Part shown: positions 7,747 through 15,661 of the stretch, piece by piece | How the letters are laid out: every line of letters starts with the position of its first letter | Numbering within the stretch: position 1 is the stretch's first letter | Source: Alphaproteobacteria bacterium | GTDB taxonomy: Bacteria > Pseudomonadota > Alphaproteobacteria > SMXQ01 | Length of the DNA: 49,760 nt | Assembly: GCA_029863585.1 (NCBI GenBank) | Contig: JAOTVC010000003.1 | Location: forward strand, 1 to 49,760 | Direction of reading: 5' to 3' | Program-made: the position numbers and the translations under genes | Notes under the pieces: generated by a model | Seen by the model: only the letters and a program-made list of their open reading frames with translations | What the model was told of the DNA's origin: nothing | Database searches by the model: none

Positions 7747-8681
7747 GCGCGCTGCACGAGACCGCCCGCCCGGCCGCGCGCGGCCCGCGCACCGTCTGGG
7801 GGCTGCTGTTGCGGCGCCTGCTGGGCCACCAGCTGGCGGTGGGCTCGGCGGCCTTCCTGGTGATCCTGGGCTGCCTCGCGATCCTGACACCGGTCATAGA
7901 GGCGGGCCTGGGGGTCGAGGCCAACGCCGTGGACCTGACCCAGCGGTTTGCCGGCCCCACCGCCGGCCATTGGCTCGGCACCGACGAACTCGGTCGCGAC
8001 CTGCTCGCCCGGCTCCTATACGGCGGCCAGGTCTCGCTGTTCGTCGGCATCGTCGCGGCGCTGGCCTCCGCCGTGATCGGCACCCTGATCGGCCTGCCGG
8101 CGGGCTATTACGGCGGCCGGCTCGATGCCGTCCTGATGCGGTTGACCGACGGGGTCATCGCCCTGCCCCTGCTGCCGCTTCTGATCGTGCTGGCGGCGCT
8201 CGACCTCAACAAGCTGGGCCTGCCCGAGGCACTGGTCAATGACCCCAATGTCAGCCTCTACCGGATGATCGTGATCATTTCCCTGGTGGGCTGGACCACG
8301 GTGGCCCGCCTGGTGCGGGGCGCTGCCCTCAGTCTGCGTGAACGGGAATACGTGCTGGCCGCGACCGCGGCGGGGGCCGGGGGCATGCGCATCATGGCGG
8401 TGCACATCCTGCCCAACGTGGTCTCGCCCATCATCGTCGCCACCACGCTCTCGGTCGGCAACGTGATCCTTCTGGAATCGGTCCTAAGCTTCCTCGGCCT
8501 CGGCATCCAGCCACCGATCGCGAGTTGGGGCAACATGCTGACCGGCGCCCAGGAGCTGATCTGGAGCGCACCGGTTCTGGCCTTCTATCCCGGCATGCTG
8601 ATTTTCGTGACGGTGATCGCCTTCAACTTCCTCGGCGACGGGCTGCAGGACGCCCTGGACCCCCGCGCCATCGAGGGCTGA
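7743..8681 (+). CDS. Peptide ABC transporter permease (OppC/DppC-like)
   Basis: Start moved to ATG 7743 (ATGA overlap) within the 6546..8681 ORF. Motifs HWLGTDELGRD, REYVLAA, HILPN and LSFLGLG. Confidence 0.95.
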   Translation: MSALHETARPAARGPRTVWGLLLRRLLGHQLAVGSAAFLVILGCLAILTPVIEAGLGVEANAVDLTQRFAGPTAGHWLGTDELGRDLLARLLYGGQVSLFVGIVAALASAVIGTLIGLPAGYYGGRLDAVLMRLTDGVIALPLLPLLIVLAALDLNKLGLPEALVNDPNVSLYRMIVIISLVGWTTVARLVRGAALSLREREYVLAATAAGAGGMRIMAVHILPNVVSPIIVATTLSVGNVILLESVLSFLGLGIQPPIASWGNMLTGAQELIWSAPVLAFYPGMLIFVTVIAFNFLGDGLQDALDPRAIEG

Positions 8682-8792
8682 CGGGCCGCCCCGGAGCGGT
8701 CTGGGGGGCATTGAACCGCTTGACCAGGACGGCGTCGGCGACGGCGGCCATGGCCAAAAGCGCGGTCGAATGAGATTCGGCATTCTGACCCG

Positions 8793-8820
8793 ATGACCGC
8801 CTTTGACCCGAGGCGGACAT
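8793..8820 (+). repeat. 28-bp palindromic site, copy 1: ATGACCGCCTT|TGACCC|GAGGCGGACAT
   Basis: Outer 10-bp arms are inverted repeats with one mismatch; 26/28 identical to the copy at 10767. Confidence 0.9.
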
Positions 8821-8856
8821 TGGGATCCCGATGAAATGTGGACCTTATCGCCCCTT

Positions 8857-9606
8857 TTATCGAGGGTTCCGAGTCAACGGCACGAATCGAACGGCGATGA
8901 CCTTACGGCGCACCATTCGCCCGCTGCGATCCTTCTCAAGAACGATGAGAGACTGATGGCCCAGAGCATCTTCCAGGGGCATGACCAAGCGCCCACCCGG
9001 CTTCAGCTGGGCAATCAGGGGCGGCGGGACCTCCTTAGGCGCGGCGGTCACCACAATGCCATCGAAGGGGGCGTGCTGCGGCCATCCCTTATAGCCATCC
9101 CCCGCCCGGACGGTCACATTGGCGTAGCCGAGACGCGCCAGGTCGGCAGCGGCGCGGCGGGCCAGCCCCTCGACGATCTCGATGGTGTAGACATGGCCCA
9201 CGAGAAGCGACAAGACCGCCGCCTGATAGCCCGACCCGGTTCCCACCTCAAGCACCACGTCCTTTGGACCCGGTTGGAGAAGCTCGGTCATCAAGGCGAC
9301 GATGTAGGGCTGGGATATGGTCTGCCCATGGCCGATGGGCAGCGGACGGTCGGCATACGCGGAAGACCGAAGACGCTCCGGGACTAGCATGTGGCGGGGC
9401 ACCGACGCCATCGAGGCCAGCACCCGCGGAGAAATCCGCCCACCGGGGGCGCCGGACCCGGGCTGGATGGCATGGGCGCGCACGGTCTCAACCATTCGTG
9501 CCCGTTCCTTGGCGAAATCCGGCGCCTCGCTGGCGCCACAGGAAACGGTGAATGGCGCGACGGCCCATACAATGCACTTCAGAACCCGTCGCGAAAAGCT
9601 CCTCAT
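8857..9606 (-). CDS. pcm: Protein-L-isoaspartate O-methyltransferase
   Basis: Motifs VPRH, AYADRPLPIGHGQTISQP, VLEVGTGSGYQ, APFDGIVVTAA and VRFVPL. ATG 9606 is preferred over the 9774 ORF start; the start is uncertain. Confidence 0.93.
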   Translation of the reverse strand: MRSFSRRVLKCIVWAVAPFTVSCGASEAPDFAKERARMVETVRAHAIQPGSGAPGGRISPRVLASMASVPRHMLVPERLRSSAYADRPLPIGHGQTISQPYIVALMTELLQPGPKDVVLEVGTGSGYQAAVLSLLVGHVYTIEIVEGLARRAAADLARLGYANVTVRAGDGYKGWPQHAPFDGIVVTAAPKEVPPPLIAQLKPGGRLVMPLEDALGHQSLIVLEKDRSGRMVRRKVIAVRFVPLTRNPR

Positions 9607-9731
9607 GGCCGCACCTATGTAAATCGCTTTCCATTCACTGCATGCAAACAGCCTGCCCCGAACGGCTGGTCTAGTTCGCATGTTAGTCGAGGGGGAACTT
9701 GGGGAAAGGCCAAATTCGGCTGACGCCTCCA

Positions 9732-9759
9732 ATATTCTCTTGTCCGCAAACGCGGACGT
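9732..9759 (+). repeat. Degenerate 28-bp site, copy 2: ATATTCTCTTGTCCGCAAACGCGGACGT
   Basis: Retains the right arm GCGGACGT and contains the hairpin GTCCGC-AAAC-GCGGAC. Left arm and spacer are divergent. Lies between two cargo units. Confidence 0.45.
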
Positions 9760-9826
9760 TAGAGGCCGCATCATGGGACCCTCTCAGAACCATGGATACC
9801 CAATTGCGATGGCAGGACCCAGATTA

Positions 9827-9867
9827 ATATTGACAATTAATTTGTCAATATGACATGTTAGTTGTCG
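9827..9867. promoter_or_regulatory. Tandem TGACA-N7-TGTC[AG] operators overlapping a TTGACA hexamer upstream of the MarR gene
   Basis: Perfect 10-bp inverted repeat ATATTGACAA-N5-TTGTCAATAT (9827-9851). A second copy, TGACA-TGTTAGT-TGTCG (9851-9867), starts 20 bp after the first TGACA. Confidence 0.75.
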
Positions 9868-9891
9868 ATAACAACAGGCGTGGGATGGTCT

Positions 9892-10371
9892 ATGAAATCT
9901 CAGCAGATCGAAGCCTTTTATCCGCTTTCAAGATCGGTGCGGTCGCTGTTCCACAAATTAGCGGCAGCGGCGGAGGCGCTCCATGAAGGAAGCGGCATTT
10001 CGACAGGAATGCGCGCTGTTCTTGAAAACGTCGTTGAGCGTGGGCCCATGACGGTGCCCGAAATGGCCCGCATGCGACCGGTTTCCCGGCAGCACATCCA
10101 GGCCCTTGTGAACGACCTCTTGGCTTTAGGCCTGGTCGGCTATCAGGACAACCCAGCCCACCGGAGATCGAAGCTCGTCAGGGCAACCGAAAAAGGGCAG
10201 GAAGCGTTTTCGGCTCTCAAGAGACGGGAATTCTCAGCCCTAAATCGTCTCGCGAGCGAAATTTCGCCTGCGGCTTTGCAGCAGGCGGACCGCGTACTTA
10301 CGGAACTGATCAGCGCATTCGATAGCGCTCAATGGCACGCCATCACCAAAGAGTTTTCCCCCAAGAGTTAA
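9892..10371 (+). CDS. MarR-family transcriptional regulator
   Basis: wHTH GPMTVPEMARMRPVSRQHIQALVNDL and wing DNPAHRRSKLVRATEKG. Confidence 0.9.
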   Translation: MKSQQIEAFYPLSRSVRSLFHKLAAAAEALHEGSGISTGMRAVLENVVERGPMTVPEMARMRPVSRQHIQALVNDLLALGLVGYQDNPAHRRSKLVRATEKGQEAFSALKRREFSALNRLASEISPAALQQADRVLTELISAFDSAQWHAITKEFSPKS

Positions 10372-10382
10372 GGAGAAGCACC

Positions 10383-10649
10383 ATGGAAAACGAACGTCAA
10401 AATCCCCTGCGCCTGCAGGGCTCTCGCTTTCGGCACTATGCCCTTGAAGGCGCAAAAATCATTGGAATTACGATCGGTCTTGCGTTTCTGGTTTTGGCCT
10501 CTTGGAACATGTTTGCGCCTGACATGTTCGGCCTGGAGCCCATTCGGATGAAGCAAGCGCTTGGCCTCGTGATCTTTACCGGCGTCTTCGCCGGGCTTCT
10601 ACGGTTTGGACACCGCTCGCGGTCTAACAGGGCCTCTCAAGGGGGCTAG
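10383..10649 (+). CDS. Small two-TM membrane protein
   Basis: AAGGAG RBS before ATG 10383; two hydrophobic helices; follows marR and precedes a terminator. Confidence 0.75.
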   Translation: MENERQNPLRLQGSRFRHYALEGAKIIGITIGLAFLVLASWNMFAPDMFGLEPIRMKQALGLVIFTGVFAGLLRFGHRSRSNRASQGG

Positions 10650-10679
10650 CGCCGCTGCCTGACAGTGGATACCGAATGC

Positions 10680-10722
10680 AAGCCCCGTGTCGCAACGAGA
10701 TCGGCACGGGGTTTCGTTTTTT
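10680..10722 (+). terminator. Rho-independent terminator of the marR unit
   Basis: Stem AAGCCCCGTGTCG / CGGCACGGGGTTT followed by CGTTTTTT. Confidence 0.75.
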
Positions 10723-10766
10723 CGGCCATGTAGGTCAATCCGGAGCCATCCCGGTCCGTCAACCTG

Positions 10767-10794
10767 ATGACCGCTTGTGACCCGAGGCGGACAT
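10767..10794 (+). repeat. 28-bp palindromic site, copy 3: ATGACCGCTTG|TGACCC|GAGGCGGACAT
   Basis: 26/28 identical to copy 1; the inverted repeat extends outward (CTG...CAG, 10764-10797). Confidence 0.9.
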
Positions 10795-10908
10795 CAGACA
10801 TCCTTGGCAAAGGATGCCTGCGATTCCGCGATCCATCCTATTTGCCAAGTGGCAACGTAATCATCATTCCTGTTTCTGATGCTGGTACTGGCAAGCAATT
10901 TACATGTT

Positions 10909-11793
10909 CTAGCATCGGGCAATTATGTGGGAATTGTTGCCGCCGCCGCCCTCGACGATTTCAATGTCATTGAAACCGGTAACGCGCAATTGCTCCGTGA
11001 TCTCTTCAACCCGCCATGGATGACCGCCACGTCGGAATATCTCGAGGTCTGAGAGCGATTGGCTAAGCGAGTCAGAGCGAGACGGGATTCCCCCAAAGAA
11101 GAGGAACCCGCCCGGCCTTAGCGCGCGGTTGAGGCGTGGCAGGGCGGAATCGACCACCTGTCGAGGCAGAAAGCTGCTGGGCAGCCAAATAACATCGAAA
11201 GCCTCCTTGTCATCGATGTCGCTAACGTCTTGGCACCGCAGCGTGATCCTGTCCTGCAAACCCTCAGCGGAAATGTTGGTTTCCGCGAGTTCCAGGGAGG
11301 GCTTCCAGATATCAAGACCAACGATCCGCATGTCGGGCCATAGCTTGGCAGCCTCGATTGCCAGCCATCCCACCCCAGTCCCGACATCGAGAAAGTCGCA
11401 GTCGGTTAGGGCGGCATCCAACGCCGGTCTCTGGCGCGCAAGGTTAGCGAAATTTCGAGCGACAGAGCGTGATGCACGCCCCCGCTGCTGCAGAACCGCC
11501 GGGTCCGTATATCCCCAGCCCGGCGCCCGGTTGGGCTCACTCAAGAATTCAAGTGCATCCTGAAGCGCTGAGGTTAAATGGCCAATGACAGTAGCGACGT
11601 GGCCCGGTTCCAACCCATCCAACAGGCCAGGTTCGAGGTTTTTCAGAACGGCATTCATCGCATCTCGGACCTGCGGATCACCCTCTTGTTCCGTTTGACG
11701 CAAGCGTAGTTCAGCGCCCAACGCTCCCATTAATTGCGTGACATTTACAAATTCACGTGTCTTAGCGAGCAGATCTGGATAGCCCATGACCAT
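10909..11793 (-). CDS. Class I SAM-dependent methyltransferase
   Basis: Motifs FLDVGTGVG, IVGLDI, FDVIWLP and ALRPGG; GAGGGG RBS upstream. Confidence 0.88.
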   Translation of the reverse strand: MVMGYPDLLAKTREFVNVTQLMGALGAELRLRQTEQEGDPQVRDAMNAVLKNLEPGLLDGLEPGHVATVIGHLTSALQDALEFLSEPNRAPGWGYTDPAVLQQRGRASRSVARNFANLARQRPALDAALTDCDFLDVGTGVGWLAIEAAKLWPDMRIVGLDIWKPSLELAETNISAEGLQDRITLRCQDVSDIDDKEAFDVIWLPSSFLPRQVVDSALPRLNRALRPGGFLFFGGIPSRSDSLSQSLSDLEIFRRGGHPWRVEEITEQLRVTGFNDIEIVEGGGGNNSHIIARC

Positions 11794-11924
11794 ACCCCTC
11801 CCATTCGCTGTGAATATCTGTCATCCTCCTAATCAGGGAGGGGATTGAAATAATGTGGGGTGGCGCGCGCCCACCACTGGAATGGTAAAGGCTCGCAGGC
11901 CATTTAGAAATTTTCAAGCCGGTT

Positions 11925-11952
11925 ATATCCGCCAATGGCCAACAGTGGGCAT
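11925..11952 (+). repeat. 28-bp site, copy 4: ATATCCGCCAA|TGGCCA|ACAGTGGGCAT
   Basis: Same length and 11-6-11 register as copies 1 and 3, with substitutions in both arms. Confidence 0.65.
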
Positions 11953-12158
11953 TGGGTTGGCGCGCAAGCATCCGCCAGAACCACCTTGCCTGCCCCGCAC
12001 GTTGAATTCGGAATCCACCTGTCAGCTCGCATGCGGAAATTCATCCCGCAATCGTCCGAGATTCTCTAAGCTCCAGATGCCGAGACAATGTTCAATAAGG
12101 GATTTCGAAATTGGGACGAAACCTCAGCACTGAGAGGCAGAAACTTCAAAGTGGGAAA

Positions 12159-12186
12159 AGCCATGTTGCGGCCGACAAGCGGACTG
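12159..12186 (+). repeat. Degenerate site, copy 5 (right half CGGCCG-ACAA-GCGGACT)
   Basis: Spacer-like CGGCCG and right arm AAGCGGACT are present; the left arm is not recognisable. Confidence 0.4.
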
Positions 12187-12313
12187 GCCGTGCCGGTGGT
12201 TCTGGATTGGGCGGCGGCGGGTGTGTGACGGCGGCAGATCGGCTGATGCCAAGATTTCTCCCCATCTGCGGATTTATTTACCGATTAAACTATTGACTTT
12301 ACTTCAGTTCTCC

Positions 12314-12343
12314 ATCCAAATATTATTTGGATAGTAATACTAT
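12314..12343. promoter_or_regulatory. Two adjacent inverted repeats upstream of the 129-aa ORF
   Basis: ATCCAAATA-T-TATTTGGAT (12314-12332) and ATAGTA-A-TACTAT (12331-12343), in an AT-rich tract with TTGACT at 12293. Confidence 0.5.
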
Positions 12344-12388
12344 TGCGGAAGCCAGGTTCCCGACACTAAAAGCAAAGAGGAGATTCCC

Positions 12389-12778
12389 ATGCCGTTCGAT
12401 GAATCCCTTGAGGTGAGATCGGTTGCCAGTATCCGCGCAGCCGTTGCCGACGCTCTCCGTAAATGTGGAAACAAAGAATTCCAAACGATCGAACGAATCG
12501 AGGACTACAGTTGCAACAACGACGTTGCCAACCTTCAGACCGCAGGCACCGTTTTTGCAGCTATCGCCGATGCTCTCGAGGACACGGGCGTGTTCGGAGA
12601 CTATTCCACCGTCGGTGAAGTCATCAAGAAGCTCATCGGCCAGGACCAGCAGAACAAGACCAAATGGATCGCACACCACATCGGCTGTTCCTGTTTGGGG
12701 CTTGCGACCGGCGAGACCGTTGCCGAAAAGATCCTGACACTCGACCTGGCCGGAAGACCTCGCTACGTTCCTGGCTAA
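12389..12778 (+). CDS. Hypothetical protein (129 aa) with HHIGCSC motif
   Basis: GAGGAG RBS, AT-rich upstream region, downstream terminator and globular-protein composition. Confidence 0.8.
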   Translation: MPFDESLEVRSVASIRAAVADALRKCGNKEFQTIERIEDYSCNNDVANLQTAGTVFAAIADALEDTGVFGDYSTVGEVIKKLIGQDQQNKTKWIAHHIGCSCLGLATGETVAEKILTLDLAGRPRYVPG

Positions 12779-12798
12779 TCATGAGCACGCCTCTTAGG

Positions 12799-12840
12799 GC
12801 CCGCCTCTCAACACCTTGTTGGAGGGCGGGCTTAATTTTT
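12799..12840 (+). terminator. Rho-independent terminator
   Basis: 15-bp imperfect stem GCCCGCCTCTCAACA-CCT-TGTTGGAGGGCGGGC followed by TTAATTTTT. Confidence 0.7.
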
Positions 12841-13066
12841 CTCAGTATTTGTAGGAGAGTCCTCCCTTCTCCGTCTTCACGAGCAATAAGTTGTTCGTGG
12901 TTGGTCAGGGGTCTTTGAGAGCACCGATGTGGCTCATCGGCTGTCATCTCAAACAATGAGCAGTGCAAAGTGATTGGAAATCCGGTCAATCCTTTGATGT
13001 CGCCTTTGGCTCCAATCACATAGAGGATTAATGCCGGGGCAAGCCGTCGTTGGGCGGGTTAATCCG

Positions 13067-13093
13067 ACGGCCGGCCTGACCCGAAGCGGACTA
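13067..13093 (+). repeat. Site copy 6: ACGGCCGGCC|TGACCC|GAAGCGGACTA
   Basis: Spacer TGACCC and right arm GAAGCGGAC match copies 1 and 3; the left arm is divergent and 1 nt short. Confidence 0.75.
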
Positions 13094-13124
13094 AACCTCA
13101 CGCGCTGGCCTCTCGCGTGCCACG

Positions 13125-14237
13125 CTAGCGCGTCAGGGCCTTGACGAAGTCTCGCGCCTCGCGCTGTTGGACGTGGAATTCTTCGGTCTGACCGCTTTCG
13201 TATTCGTCGAGCTTGTCGAAATCGATCTTGTGGGCCGGATCAGCCATCGGCACTCCCTGCATCCGGCTGTTAAGTCCGACCAAGGGCATGATCATCTCCT
13301 GGGTCTTCCTCGAGAGTAGCCAGTTGACGAAGACGATGGTGGCGTTGGGGTGGGGTCGAGGGTTCAGGACCTGGATGCCGCAGACTCCCGGGCTCCATCG
13401 CTTCAGGCCGGTGACCTCCCCGATGTTGAGCGTGACGCCGCGCTGTCGATATAGGCGAATGAAGGAGCCCGGAATGCCAATCGAGACCGGATACCTGCCA
13501 CTGACGAACCAGTCCATCAACTGGCGCTCGTTTCTGGTAATGACCGGTTTCTGCTCCTCGATCAGAGCGCGGATGAATGGCTTGCCGTAACGCGTGTCCT
13601 TCAACAGCATCGCCATGGTGATCGAGGCCGACCCTTCAGAAGGCTCCGCCATGGAGATCTTACCCTTCCATTTGGGGTCCAGCATCTCCTTGAGTTCGAA
13701 TTCTTCCTGCTTGATGAAGTCCCTGTTGAAGTAAGCGAAGGTGCTTTCGTAGATGCAAAAGGTCGGGAAGAACTTTTTGCCCCTATCAAGGAACATGTGC
13801 TGAAAGCCGCCATGCCAATTCTTTTCGTCGGTGACCTCGGGCAGCATCAACATTGGTCTCACCTCGGCAATGCCCCCTTGAGAGGAAAGCTGCCAGGCCG
13901 CTGCGGTGGCGCCGCCCACGCGAACGTCCCAGAGGTGCTTGCTGACCTCGCGCTCCTTCAGCACCTTGGGCCAGAAATCGCGACCGGCGAACGGCGTCAC
14001 GGATATCTTGACGTCAGGATAATCCTTTTGGAACCGGGCCAAGACATCACGCCAGGTCCGACCCGTGGGGCCCGCGACCACCAGCCTGCCCTCGTTTCTG
14101 GCAGCGGACACGATCCCGTCCCACTTGGCCTTTCCGGCCCAGTCGGCCGCGGTCGCCGCCAGGGCGCCTGCGCAGAGGATGAACGCACCGAGCCCAGCGG
14201 TCGGAAGGAAACGGCTCGGAGATCGGTGGGATGTCAT
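13125..14237 (-). CDS. Orphan ABC transporter substrate-binding protein (iron/polyamine/2-aminoethylphosphonate-like class)
   Basis: Signal peptide ending ATA-AD; motifs ARNEGRLVV, LDPKWKGKI and PHPNATIVFVNWLLS. Confidence 0.88.
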   Translation of the reverse strand: MTSHRSPSRFLPTAGLGAFILCAGALAATAADWAGKAKWDGIVSAARNEGRLVVAGPTGRTWRDVLARFQKDYPDVKISVTPFAGRDFWPKVLKEREVSKHLWDVRVGGATAAAWQLSSQGGIAEVRPMLMLPEVTDEKNWHGGFQHMFLDRGKKFFPTFCIYESTFAYFNRDFIKQEEFELKEMLDPKWKGKISMAEPSEGSASITMAMLLKDTRYGKPFIRALIEEQKPVITRNERQLMDWFVSGRYPVSIGIPGSFIRLYRQRGVTLNIGEVTGLKRWSPGVCGIQVLNPRPHPNATIVFVNWLLSRKTQEMIMPLVGLNSRMQGVPMADPAHKIDFDKLDEYESGQTEEFHVQQREARDFVKALTR

Positions 14238-14419
14238 GATCAGCCTCGTCTACTAGAAAAGCGGCGATACGCCGGGCAGCCATTGCGGATGTCTCGGCGA
14301 TGCCGGCCCTCAATCCACCCCATATCGAGTCAGGAAAAGGATGGCAATTCTATAGGCGCCCCACATAGGCAAATGGGCATCGCCCCAAGCCGTCAAGCGA
14401 CGCCTTCGGAAGCCGCCAA

Positions 14420-14448
14420 ATGTCCGTTTCTTGGCCAGTCGCGGACAT
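14420..14448 (+). repeat. Site copy 7: ATGTCCGTTTCT|TGGCCA|GTCGCGGACAT
   Basis: Perfect outer arms AATGTCCG/CGGACATT (14419-14449); spacer identical to copy 4; marks the right edge of the lower-GC block. Confidence 0.85.
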
Positions 14449-14504
14449 TAGGTCAACGGTAGAACCATACCTCCGCCCCTGTTTGCCCGGGGGGCGACGG
14501 TCTC

Positions 14505-14559
14505 ATGGATGCCCCGGAGTCAAGCCCACGCGTACCTTCCCACGACCCCGGGGCATGAC
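14505..14559. repeat. REP-like palindrome (GGATGCCCCGG-AGTCAAGCCC...CCGGGGCATGAC)
   Basis: 9-bp inverted repeat ATGCCCCGG (14509-14517) / CCGGGGCAT (14548-14556). Resembles the common alphaproteobacterial GGATGCCCGGGTCAAGCCCGGGCATGAC repeat (recalled, not searched). Confidence 0.6.
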
Positions 14560-14615
14560 CGAATTCTCGTCGCCATGACCCGCCGAATTCGGCCGGGGTT
14601 GATTCGCAGACCGGA

Positions 14616-15452
14616 TCAGCGCGACATGTAGACCGGCACCGTCATCTTTTCCAGGATGCGCCGTGTGGTGCCGCCGAAGACCAGCTCACGCAAACGGAAG
14701 CTACCGTAGGAGCCGATCACCATCATGTCGGCGTTGAAATCGCCGCACTGCTTGATCAGTTCGTCGCCGACCGTGCCGCGGTCGGCGGTCACCTCCACCA
14801 CCTCGCCCCTGACGCCGTGGCGCGCGAGGTGGGTGGCGATATTGGCACCCGGCATCTCGCCATGGGCCATGATGCCCCGTTCGGCGTTGATGACCATGAT
14901 TCGGACCTCGTCCGCCGCCTGGAGCAGCGGCAGCGCGTCGTTGGCGGCCCGGGCCGCCGCGCGGCTTGCGTTCCAGGCCAGCAGGATTCGCTTGCCGACG
15001 GTGTCGGGCGCGCCGGAATAGGGAACGGCGATGGCCGGGCGGCCCGCATCCAGCACCACGTGATCGGGCAGTTCCGGGGCGGCGCCCGCATCCAGGCGCC
15101 CCGGCATGCGCTGGCCCACCACGGTAAGATCGGCATAGCGCGCGTTGACGACCAGCATTTCCGGCACCGCGCCTTCGACCTGGCGCCATTCGGCGGCGAT
15201 GCCGGCGCGCCCAATCTTTTCGTCGAACTGCCGCTTGGCTTCTTCCGCCGATTCCCGCATGAACTTGTCATGGGCCTCGATCAGTTCGGGGCCCAGGTCC
15301 GCCTCGGTGTATTGGTGAATGGGCGCCACCGCCACCACGTAGACCGCGGCGAGATGGGCGTCGTTGGCCTGGGCCAAGCGGATCGCGTAATCCAGGCGGT
15401 CCGGGGTCGCCGGCGACGAGTCGATGTGAACCAGAATATCTTTCAAAGCCAT
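14616..15452 (-). CDS. Universal stress protein (tandem Usp domains)
   Basis: Motifs KDILVHID, ARYADLTVVGQ, ILLAWNASRAAARA and MVIGSYGSFRLRELVFGGTT. Confidence 0.93.
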   Translation of the reverse strand: MALKDILVHIDSSPATPDRLDYAIRLAQANDAHLAAVYVVAVAPIHQYTEADLGPELIEAHDKFMRESAEEAKRQFDEKIGRAGIAAEWRQVEGAVPEMLVVNARYADLTVVGQRMPGRLDAGAAPELPDHVVLDAGRPAIAVPYSGAPDTVGKRILLAWNASRAAARAANDALPLLQAADEVRIMVINAERGIMAHGEMPGANIATHLARHGVRGEVVEVTADRGTVGDELIKQCGDFNADMMVIGSYGSFRLRELVFGGTTRRILEKMTVPVYMSR

Positions 15453-15661
15453 GACGCCTGCCCTCTTATTTATCCTTTTTTATCCATTCTCCGCCCATCT
15501 TGGCGTTTTTCCCGGGTTCTTGTCCGTCTGCCGCATAAGGATCTCATTTTGCCGGGAAGCATAAGCACAAGCGCGGGGCCAACGCCAGCACCACTTGACC
15601 CCCGCCCTTGTGAGGCACGGCGATTTCCTCTAACAAGGCGCAAGTCGAGAAAAGGTAGAAA

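Follow-up and report, generated by a model that had tools for sequence, protein, structure and literature searches.

In integron arrays, and in clusters of attC sites lacking integron integrases (CALINs), small and mostly single-gene units of unrelated function are separated by a repeated imperfect palindrome; the units are of foreign composition, their content is variable between close relatives, and CALINs can be very long with no integrase gene adjacent to them. The modules known from Acinetobacter plasmids as pdif modules are found in varied surroundings, are bounded by 28-bp dif-like sites in opposite orientation and contain no recombinase. Large serine recombinases move staphylococcal cassette chromosome (SCC)-type composite cassette arrays and Tn4451-type mobilisable transposons, elements for which enzyme-less cassettes movable in trans and imperfect inverted repeats around a short centre are typical. 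Repetitive extragenic palindromes (REPs) form lineage-specific families, and the bacterial interspersed mosaic elements (BIMEs) of E. coli are built as alternating mosaics with fixed linkers. Here we describe a block of inserted DNA of about 5.9 kb with lower GC content, which carries unrelated genes and repeated 28-bp palindromes and is flanked by two core genes, an oppC-like permease gene and usp, in an Alphaproteobacteria bacterium (SMXQ01; assembly GCA_029863585.1, contig JAOTVC010000003.1, positions 1–49,760 of the forward strand). These 49,760 nt, the whole stretch of DNA that was analysed, are referred to as the window. We consider it fairly probable that the block is a tandem array of mobile modules, the palindromes being module-boundary recombination sites that are used in trans.

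By analogy, the nearest known architecture would be that of integron/CALIN arrays and Xer-type dif modules, and our best reading is that the array resembles both and is a member of neither. Integrons differ in several ways. The site found here consists of one to three palindromes of 28–29 bp with identical arms instead of an attC with R and L boxes, many small arrays are scattered between core genes, and the cargo of the window is of mixed direction. Besides, R and L boxes are kept by compensating changes that were not seen in the present sites, the arms of which vary independently. Compared to pdif modules, the arms are symmetrical, the modules are chromosomal and occur in several bacterial classes, two or three hairpins can be combined into composites at fixed spacing, and the site is unlike the dif site of the source genome (G000, a 4.09-Mb assembly of 383 contigs). 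The original prediction, which was made from the sequence of the window alone, had proposed a site type other than that of integrons. By the tests run, the site is indeed not an attC, but two site types in inverted orientation were found instead of one.

Sites and inserted DNA in the window and in the genus

Seven related sites had been named in the original prediction. Each was scored by alignment to a 37-nt end consensus (flank plus hairpin), and the scores were compared with those of 6000 random 60-nt windows of the genome, for which the 99% and 99.9% quantiles were 10 and 13. Three sites were strong (8793, 10767 and 14420) and two were degenerate yet above chance (13067 and 11925; Table 1). 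By sequence score the remaining two, 9732 and 12159 (the latter with a score of 9), were no better than chance. The position of 9732 is supported by a homology to another genome that stops 6 nt before it, at 9726 (see below); 12159 was without support, as a homology to another genome (12037–12819) spans it. As predicted, the sites were intergenic on the gene and open reading frame (ORF) map, and nothing with ≤5 mismatches was found elsewhere in the window outside 8793–14448; the sole further match of this kind was at chance level and lies at 13870, inside the solute-binding protein (SBP) gene. The predicted common orientation was confirmed for three sites (8793, 10767 and 13067; type A), which are direct repeats, the copy at 10767 showing 91% identity over 33 nt to that at 8788–8820. 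The sites at 11925 and 14420 (type B) have their flank on the other side and are thus inverted relative to A.

These sites belong to a family with the consensus ATGTCCGCTT-N8-AAGCGGACAT, of which about 60 copies were found in G000; together with its presence in many other bacteria, this means that the sites are no feature of this array alone, as had been supposed. A matrix scan of G000 gave 72 sites with ≥16 bits, and the reversed matrix used as a control gave none. When ≤4 arm mismatches and loops of 7–10 nt were allowed, 63 sites were found genome-wide compared to 5 and 4 in two shuffles. One side of the hairpin is followed by 14–15 further conserved bases (GGGCTTGTTAACCYG) that contain GTTAAC. 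Read from this flank, the centres fall into class A (xTGACCCx) and class B (xTAGCCAx or xTGGCCAx), and an A end is the inverted repeat of a B end over approximately 43 nt, beyond which conservation drops sharply. Linkers of fixed length (35 and 60–71 nt from start to start) were seen in the genus. The strict 37-nt pattern of flank plus hairpin gave 18–31 matches per genome in all five genomes of the genus, 0–3 matches in 20 further genomes of this family and none in 16 from outside the family, and the GTTAAC motif is limited to the flank of the genus.

A profile scan had been suggested in the original prediction as a test for clustering at low-GC accessory DNA, and the sites were found to be clustered and adjacent to low-GC DNA, not evenly spread. 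Among the 59 sites with ≥20 bits, 34 had a neighbour within 5 kb (6.2 expected by random placement), and only one lay in a long ORF with high GC content at third codon positions (GC3), a class of ORF that makes up 75% of the genome. At 24 of the 27 oriented sites, GC was lower on the side opposite the GTTAAC flank (means of 54.6% vs 62.6%, p = 8.5e-5). In thirteen mapped regions (the C26 maps and 11 regions on other contigs), an A end and a B end with outward flanks were located around 0.8–4.7 kb of low-GC DNA; the genes outside this DNA had a GC3 of 0.85–0.9.

The stop codons of oppC and usp are only 18–40 bp apart in the congeners G001, G003 and G004, and nine or more genomes from other genera of the family show the same adjacency, with gaps of 5–70 bp. 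Therefore, the whole of 8682–14615 is an insertion. The first and last sites had been predicted to coincide with the edges of the low-GC block; the outermost sites were located 111 and 167 nt inside the ends of the insertion (about 8682 and 14615). In the closest congener, G002 (89–91% identical), 1.8 kb of unrelated DNA and a diverged hairpin were found beside usp. This genome contains the pcm module (8789–9726) alone, as an 87% identical stretch on another contig (C434) with both neighbours different, and the homology begins 4 nt before hairpin A1. The orphan-gene region likewise recurs in other surroundings (12209–12827, 82% identical to G002:C332; 12037–12819, 74% identical to G001:C165).

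An empty site in congeners was found at all four loci that could be compared, i.e., the oppC–usp locus of the window (empty in G001, G003 and G004), C373 (empty in G003, G004 and G001), C255 (empty in G001) and C26:59589–63005, which contains a tad-gene module (empty in G004). The C30 locus was left out of the comparison, its flanks being on separate contigs in the relatives. At the C373, C255 and C26 loci, G002 showed the same ends with different cargo: the homology continues to and through the hairpins and ends there, with other DNA in between. Other content was found in G001 at the C26 locus as well. No target duplication was seen when filled and empty sites were lined up at the C373 and C255 loci. 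The sites are real, form a family and bound inserted low-GC DNA, and the same boundaries enclose different or no cargo in congeners. The predicted construction of the block from separate modules with junctions at the palindromes was borne out by the relatives without the block and by the single pcm module in G002. A comparison of the oppC–usp locus and others in relatives, also suggested in the original prediction, thus showed breakpoints at the sites and absent or replaced cargo, but the insertion reaches beyond the outermost hairpins. The refuting conditions named in the original prediction mostly turned out in favour of it.

Occurrence of the palindrome in other bacteria

Contigs of one genome per species were scanned with the hairpin alone, which gave at least 119 stretches, 80 of them inspected for taxon and site. 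The matches listed were from Alpha-, Beta- and Gammaproteobacteria and one metagenome-assembled genome (MAG) of Verrucomicrobia, with a GC content of 38–65% and up to 15 sites in 8 kb. Taxa among these matches were Pseudolabrys, Xanthobacteraceae, Hyphomicrobiales, Rhizobium, Agrobacterium vitis, Sphingomonas, Lysobacter, Pseudoxanthomonas, Rhodanobacter and Pseudomonas, and furthermore Coxiellaceae, other low-GC Gammaproteobacteria, a betaproteobacterium and the verrucomicrobial MAG (Udaeobacter). The A-type centre TGACCC recurs outside the genus, with the partner centres TGGCAC, GGGCCA, GGCCGA and GGGGGTA (9-nt loop). Flanks vary between lineages, or are absent while the hairpin is kept, and composite hairpins with start-to-start spacings of 45–46 and 91 nt were found. 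Three other hairpin-rich genomes contained 155, 162 and 68 sites.

The longest array, of approximately 74 kb, was found in a betaproteobacterial MAG (G042:C3:8734–82795; L182 and L183). It consists of small cassettes with a GC content of 0.55–0.58, compared to 0.65–0.71 in the core, separated by three-hairpin composites with the centres TGGCAC, GGGGGTA and TGACCC at 45–46-nt spacing. It is bordered by a Liv-type ABC transporter and a RidA-like gene on one side and by an isochorismatase-family gene on the other, and no recombinase gene was found at either end, a combination of length and missing adjacent integrase that is shared with CALINs. In this array and in those of another hairpin-rich genome, G045, the ORFs mostly have the same direction and a composite site is located 9–40 nt past each stop codon; these arrays look much more integron-like than the array in the window.

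Cargo families recurring across the at least 119 stretches were ABC_sub_bind, PAS kinases, ABC ATPases, AMP-binding and LysR. Orphan solute-binding genes of the ABC_sub_bind family (PF04392) were the commonest cargo, being present in 17 of these stretches and several times in one G045 array (L181, 10832–17635). Clustering of the neighbouring ORFs over the same stretches (L054–L172) showed no recombinase among the recurrent families. A plasmid collection searched with the three-hairpin composite gave one weak match. Hairpin-string and keyword searches of the literature gave no description of the palindrome or of such arrays in the text covered; the hairpin strings returned unrelated primers only, and two 15-mers had zero occurrences there.

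Tentatively, these arrays may be seen as an integron-independent cassette system. Throughout the Alpha-, Beta- and Gammaproteobacteria and outside these classes, single-gene modules would dock and be exchanged at the 28-bp duplex palindrome, which would serve universally, alone or as a composite of two or three hairpins at fixed spacing, in anything from mini-arrays to 74-kb super-arrays. The recombinase of the system would act in trans, be possibly phage-borne and of the large serine type, and mostly not be kept by the carriers. We regard this wider proposal as plausible rather than probable. If the palindromes are true exchange sites, nature would have, beside integrons, another large system in which single genes are shuffled, with a different type of site and with abundant soil and sediment bacteria as carriers, and this would help to explain the spread of orphan solute-binding proteins, sensor kinases and similar accessory genes. 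The system also points to a compact and highly conserved protein–DNA recognition pair, and the 28-mer is a simple sequence handle for flexible genome regions in metagenomes.

The hairpin was also present in 45 viral contigs (IMG/VR). Ten of them were closely similar (L191, L195, L199, L200, L202, L211, L213, L229, L234 and L235), each with two hairpins (centres CTGGCCGG and CTGACCGA) at a distance of exactly 1513 bp; no Pfam family was found for four ORFs scanned around the hairpins of L191.

Proposed recombination in trans and alternative explanations

In the proposed mechanism, the module boundary would be a 28-bp inverted repeat with 10-bp arms (ATGTCCGCTT and AAGCGGACAT) around an 8-nt asymmetric centre, which in the genus would be of type A (TGACCC) or type B (TAGCCA or TGGCCA), each with a 15-nt GTTAAC-containing flank on its outer side. 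The palindromes would be double-stranded binding and crossover sites of a dimeric site-specific recombinase, encoded elsewhere or no longer resident, and exchange between two sites of the same type would lead to insertion, loss or replacement of the intervening DNA. We infer that the palindrome itself is the crossover point and that the enzyme acts in trans; trans action is the simplest reading because no recombinase was found in or beside the arrays examined. The variation of the arms was analysed in 293 distinct sites, a set that was collected with a palindromic matrix and is therefore biased for this purpose. Positions 6 and 23 showed no link (C-G 168, T-G 55, C-A 37, T-A 13; odds ratio 1.07, p = 0.86) and positions 10 and 19 a weak one (odds ratio 2.1, p = 0.014). 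Independent variation of the half-sites fits a protein dimer on two duplex half-sites. As far as can be judged from sequence variation, it does not agree with selection for the folding of single-stranded DNA or RNA into a hairpin and points to a dimeric protein that binds double-stranded DNA at the palindrome.

Thirty cargo ORFs on other contigs of G000 were assigned to Nfu, HflK/C, TadE/G, GGDEF, PEMT-like, CBS, BON and sensor kinase proteins and to orphans; by Pfam, and in this genome, no transposase, recombinase or other mobility gene was found among them. The tyrosine recombinases of G000 were XerC, XerD and two P4-type integrases, all of them located off the array contigs, and no recombinase was found beside any examined array of this genome. 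A search for small resolvases showed no association with the sites, and a search of G000 for a palindromic empty landing pad (GGGCTTGTTAACAAGCCC, ≤3 mismatches) gave one irrelevant match. The original prediction had placed the recombinase elsewhere and had suggested a search for a tyrosine recombinase or HUH nuclease gene co-occurring with such arrays. The first part agrees with the lack of such a gene in or beside the arrays examined; no steady partner was found. The outer six arm bases (TGTCYG) equal the half-site of Tn3 res site I as printed in PMC4499144. A link to Tn3-type resolvases was treated as a lead at the level of coincidence, no small resolvase accompanying the sites.

Large serine recombinases were encoded by eight of the 45 viral contigs with the hairpin. 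They showed 29–62% mutual identity, except for two pairs at 90%, and six of the eight were located ≤540 nt from a hairpin. On L209, L217 and L226, a C-type hairpin lies 23–160 nt past the stop codon of the recombinase gene. L217 (247–6403) and L209 (98–6837) contain units of approximately 6 kb with a large serine recombinase and a terminase-like gene (Terminase_6C), flanked on both sides by inverted pairs or triplets of hairpins; they might represent an autonomous element of this family, or else a small phage-like one that an array has captured. A frameshifted homologue was found 1.2 kb from the start of the G045 array. The occurrence of such diverse phage-type recombinases beside hairpins in six to eight viral contigs is reminiscent of elements moved by large serine recombinases, but no single chromosomal attachment site is seen here, and that the enzyme is a phage-type large serine recombinase is, in our estimate, rather unlikely. 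An isolated-phage collection searched with the recombinase gave distant serine integrases only (29–48% identity). The homologue in G000 (C152:13532–15241, 569 aa) was rejected as the enzyme: its catalytic domain shows 71% identity to that of the array-adjacent gene of G045, but it lies approximately 200 nt from a tRNA gene and no hairpin is nearby. Its homologues in G001 (C119) and G002 (C2) are located in the same way, and the G000 gene, whose contig ends 360 bp upstream, probably belongs to an integrative element at the tRNA gene.

Several observations weigh against recombination at the palindromes by an enzyme acting in trans. The inserted DNA extends 40–170 nt past the outermost hairpins, so that a hairpin was not the exact end point of the first insertion at a locus. 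While the homology of pcm in G002 ends at the sites, no recognisable site was found alongside pcm in G001, G003 and G004 or, in G001 and G002, alongside the orphan gene. G000 has no enzyme that is linked to the sites. The lone serine recombinase of this genome adjoins a tRNA gene, and so do its counterparts in G001 and G002. In a reciprocal test, relatives of the L209 recombinase were found at nine viral loci, of which only the query's own locus contained hairpins; tRNA genes directly adjoin two of the relatives, including one with 81% identity. Homologues of the large serine recombinases were present in five of nine other genomes searched (eight of the nine being hairpin-bearing), two of them as end-of-contig fragments only, and were near hairpins in one of the three genomes with readable surroundings. 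A search for circles, suggested in the original prediction, gave neither a circle nor an alternative joint over 7800–15500 in public contigs of four runs, in which rare forms are invisible; loose contig ends were found at 10761 and 10794 only and come from other copies of the repeat. The genus genomes are fragmented MAGs of 170–580 contigs, so that gene absence is weak evidence, and the bias of the 293-site set has to be counted here as well. For the addition of cassettes one at a time, as originally predicted, no support was found. The original interpretation as a whole is thus partly supported. Its core stands, namely that functionally unrelated genes joined the block as modules at a repeated site through an enzyme whose gene lies elsewhere; empty loci in congeners, exchanged cargo and breakpoints that coincide with the sites all add to its strength.

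REP/BIME-like extragenic palindromes would be selfish or structural repeats that gather in variable intergenic DNA, mark accessory genes and perhaps promote rearrangement, without being sites of movement. This would account for palindromes that are short, multi-copy and intergenic, for the mosaics of two or three types with alternating orientation and fixed linkers, which were observed both in the genus and elsewhere, for copies with one recognisable partner or none, and for the many contigs that end at the repeat. However, the arm sequence is kept across classes and over 38–65% GC, which is unlike the lineage-specific REP families, and 24 of 27 sites are polar with respect to low-GC cargo. 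Homology between species stops at the sites. Y1 transposases of REP-associated type (RAYT; PF01797) were found in none of the five genomes of the genus, which are 90–100% complete, and in one of five other hairpin-rich genomes (G041–G045), away from the hairpins. A single-strand HUH enzyme would also need a folded hairpin, and the independent variation of the arms gives no sign of selection for one. We therefore consider this explanation unlikely, and by the tests run the site qualifies neither as an attC nor as a REP/RAYT element. It is still less probable that the units are non-autonomous transposons (mobile insertion cassettes) that end in terminal inverted repeats of approximately 43 bp, composed of GTTAAC flank and hairpin, and are moved by a DDE transposase encoded elsewhere. 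The mutual inversion of A and B ends with their sharply bounded conservation fits this, as do units of 0.8–4.7 kb with passenger genes and no enzyme. Against it stand the lack of target-site duplications at the C373 and C255 loci, with inserted DNA reaching 40–85 nt beyond the repeats, the lack of a transposase among the 30 cargo ORFs, and the DNA from a B end to the next A end (marR and the orphan gene), which is inserted and low in GC as well. In other bacteria, moreover, the flank differs or is missing with the hairpin kept, and array sites are direct repeats between co-directional ORFs.

Movement by the host XerC and XerD recombinases, acting on 28-bp dif-like sites as in pdif modules, we regard as very unlikely, even though the site measures 28 bp and allows an 11-6-11 reading, modules lie between sites of opposite orientation and have no recombinase of their own, as is the pattern of pdif modules, and XerC and XerD are both present and are the only recombinases common to all these hosts. 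The single canonical dif copy of G000 (C288:10336–10363) is unlike the hairpin and matches each of its arms at 5 of 11 positions, as counted by hand; the inner bases of the arms, where Xer sites are most conserved, are wholly unlike dif, and identical arms fit a homodimer and not a XerC–XerD pair. A true integron, with attC-like single-strand sites recombined by an integron integrase, was already disfavoured and has hardly any probability left in our view. It would be in line with arrays of small cassettes, in particular those of G045 and G042, where a composite imperfect palindrome of 63–119 nt follows each of the co-directional ORFs, and the GTTAAC flank of the genus roughly resembles the core motifs of attC sites. 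No integron integrase was found in G000, however, as its four tyrosine recombinases were all far below the TIGR02249 cut-off. Such an integrase was detected in one of the five other hairpin-rich genomes (G042), on other contigs with no hairpins near, and none lies at the ends of the 74-kb array. The arms show no pairing covariation, and the cargo of the window is bidirectional, with its own promoter-like and terminator-like elements.

Gene content of the block and further observations

The features of the block are listed in Table 1. The GC content was 52–60% over approximately 9500–14400 compared to 65–70% in the surroundings. In order, the genes and ends are the oppC-like permease gene (ending at 8681), A (8793), pcm, the doubtful 9732, marR with a small membrane ORF, A (10767), the methyltransferase gene, B (11925), the orphan gene, A (13067), the SBP gene, B (14420) and usp on the minus strand. 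The gene content had been predicted correctly, since Pfam agreed for pcm, marR, the methyltransferase, SBP and usp; the membrane ORF and the 129-aa ORF were without family. Three cargo genes are on the minus strand (pcm, methyltransferase and SBP), and marR and the orphan gene on the plus strand carry promoter-like and terminator-like elements of their own; a terminator-like hairpin followed by a T-run was read from the sequence at about 10686–10722, after the membrane ORF. A paralogue of the SBP gene with 77% identity was found at G000:C118. An Rfam scan of the whole window gave no family above threshold.

Table 1. Coordinates of the inserted block, its ends and its genes in the window (PWM, position weight matrix; score, alignment to the 37-nt end consensus).
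Feature	Position	Strand	Evidence and remarks
Inserted block	8682–14615	.	From oppC-like stop codon (8679–8681) to usp stop (14616, minus strand)
End A1: degenerate GTTAAC-type flank (8778–8792) and A-type hairpin (8793–8820), loop TTGACCCG	8778–8820	+	PWM 32 bits, 3 arm mismatches, score 23
pcm, protein-L-isoaspartate O-methyltransferase	8857–9610	-	Pfam PCMT, E = 6.5e-60; 87% identical to G002:C434; start near 9610 is an estimate, open frame extends to 9774
Possible decayed junction with short palindrome GTCCGC-AAAC-GCGGAC	9732–9759	+	Score 11, not above chance for a 5.9-kb region
marR-family gene and small membrane ORF (10332–10649)	9862–10722	+	Pfam MarR_2, E = 5.5e-8; small ORF without family
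End A2: flank CGGTCCGTCAACCTG and A-type hairpin (10767–10794), loop GTGACCCG	10752–10794	+	PWM 33 bits, 2 arm mismatches, score 27
Class I S-adenosylmethionine-dependent methyltransferase	10909–11793	-	Pfam Methyltransf_25, E = 2.5e-15
End B1: B-type hairpin (11925–11952), loop ATGGCCAA, degenerate flank TGGGTTGGC at right	11925–11967	+	PWM 24.5 bits, score 14
129-aa orphan ORF with own terminator	12389–12830	+	No Pfam family
End A3: flank GGTTAATCCG and decayed A-type hairpin; left arm degenerate, loop TGACCCG, right arm AAGCGGACTA	13055–13093	+	Score 16
Orphan extracellular solute-binding protein	13125–14237	-	Weak Pfam matches, SBP_bac_8 and SBP_bac_1
End B2: B-type hairpin (14420–14448), 9-nt loop CTTGGCCAG, right flank TAGGTCAAC	14420–14463	+	3 arm mismatches, score 21

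The stretches between the core genes and the outermost recognised ends (8682–8792, 111 nt, and 14464–14615, 152 nt) were missing from the relatives too. Hairpin-like remnants were seen by eye near 8755 (TGGCCAAAAGCGCGGTCGAAT) and near 14566 (ATGACCCGCCGAATTCGGCCGGGGTTGAT), which may be older, decayed ends. In run X4, an estuary metagenome, the block was covered only at approximately 8770–10280, i.e., the pcm–marR part, with a depth of about 2 and 90–99% identity, and by a 69-base piece near 13940, possibly a sign that the array of a relative in this metagenome is shorter or has other content.

Seven contigs of G000 end a few to approximately 280 bases from a hairpin (C6:8, C23:14, C208:9, C42:284, C144:89, C7:27618 and C362:8111). 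These breaks seem to be due to the repeat or to strain-level differences in the cargo behind it, and such MAGs may break into contigs partly because of the repeat.

At the pcm locus of G004 (C110, approximately 12900–13100; L019), the pcm homologue is followed by a tRNA-like gene, as judged by eye, and then by AT-rich DNA with no hairpins; this looks like another kind of integrated element. The empty equivalent of the C373 locus in G001 (C23, approximately 10812–10896; L044) was found to contain about six tandem copies of a 13-nt unit, CCAGGCCTCTGAA-like, between two convergent genes.

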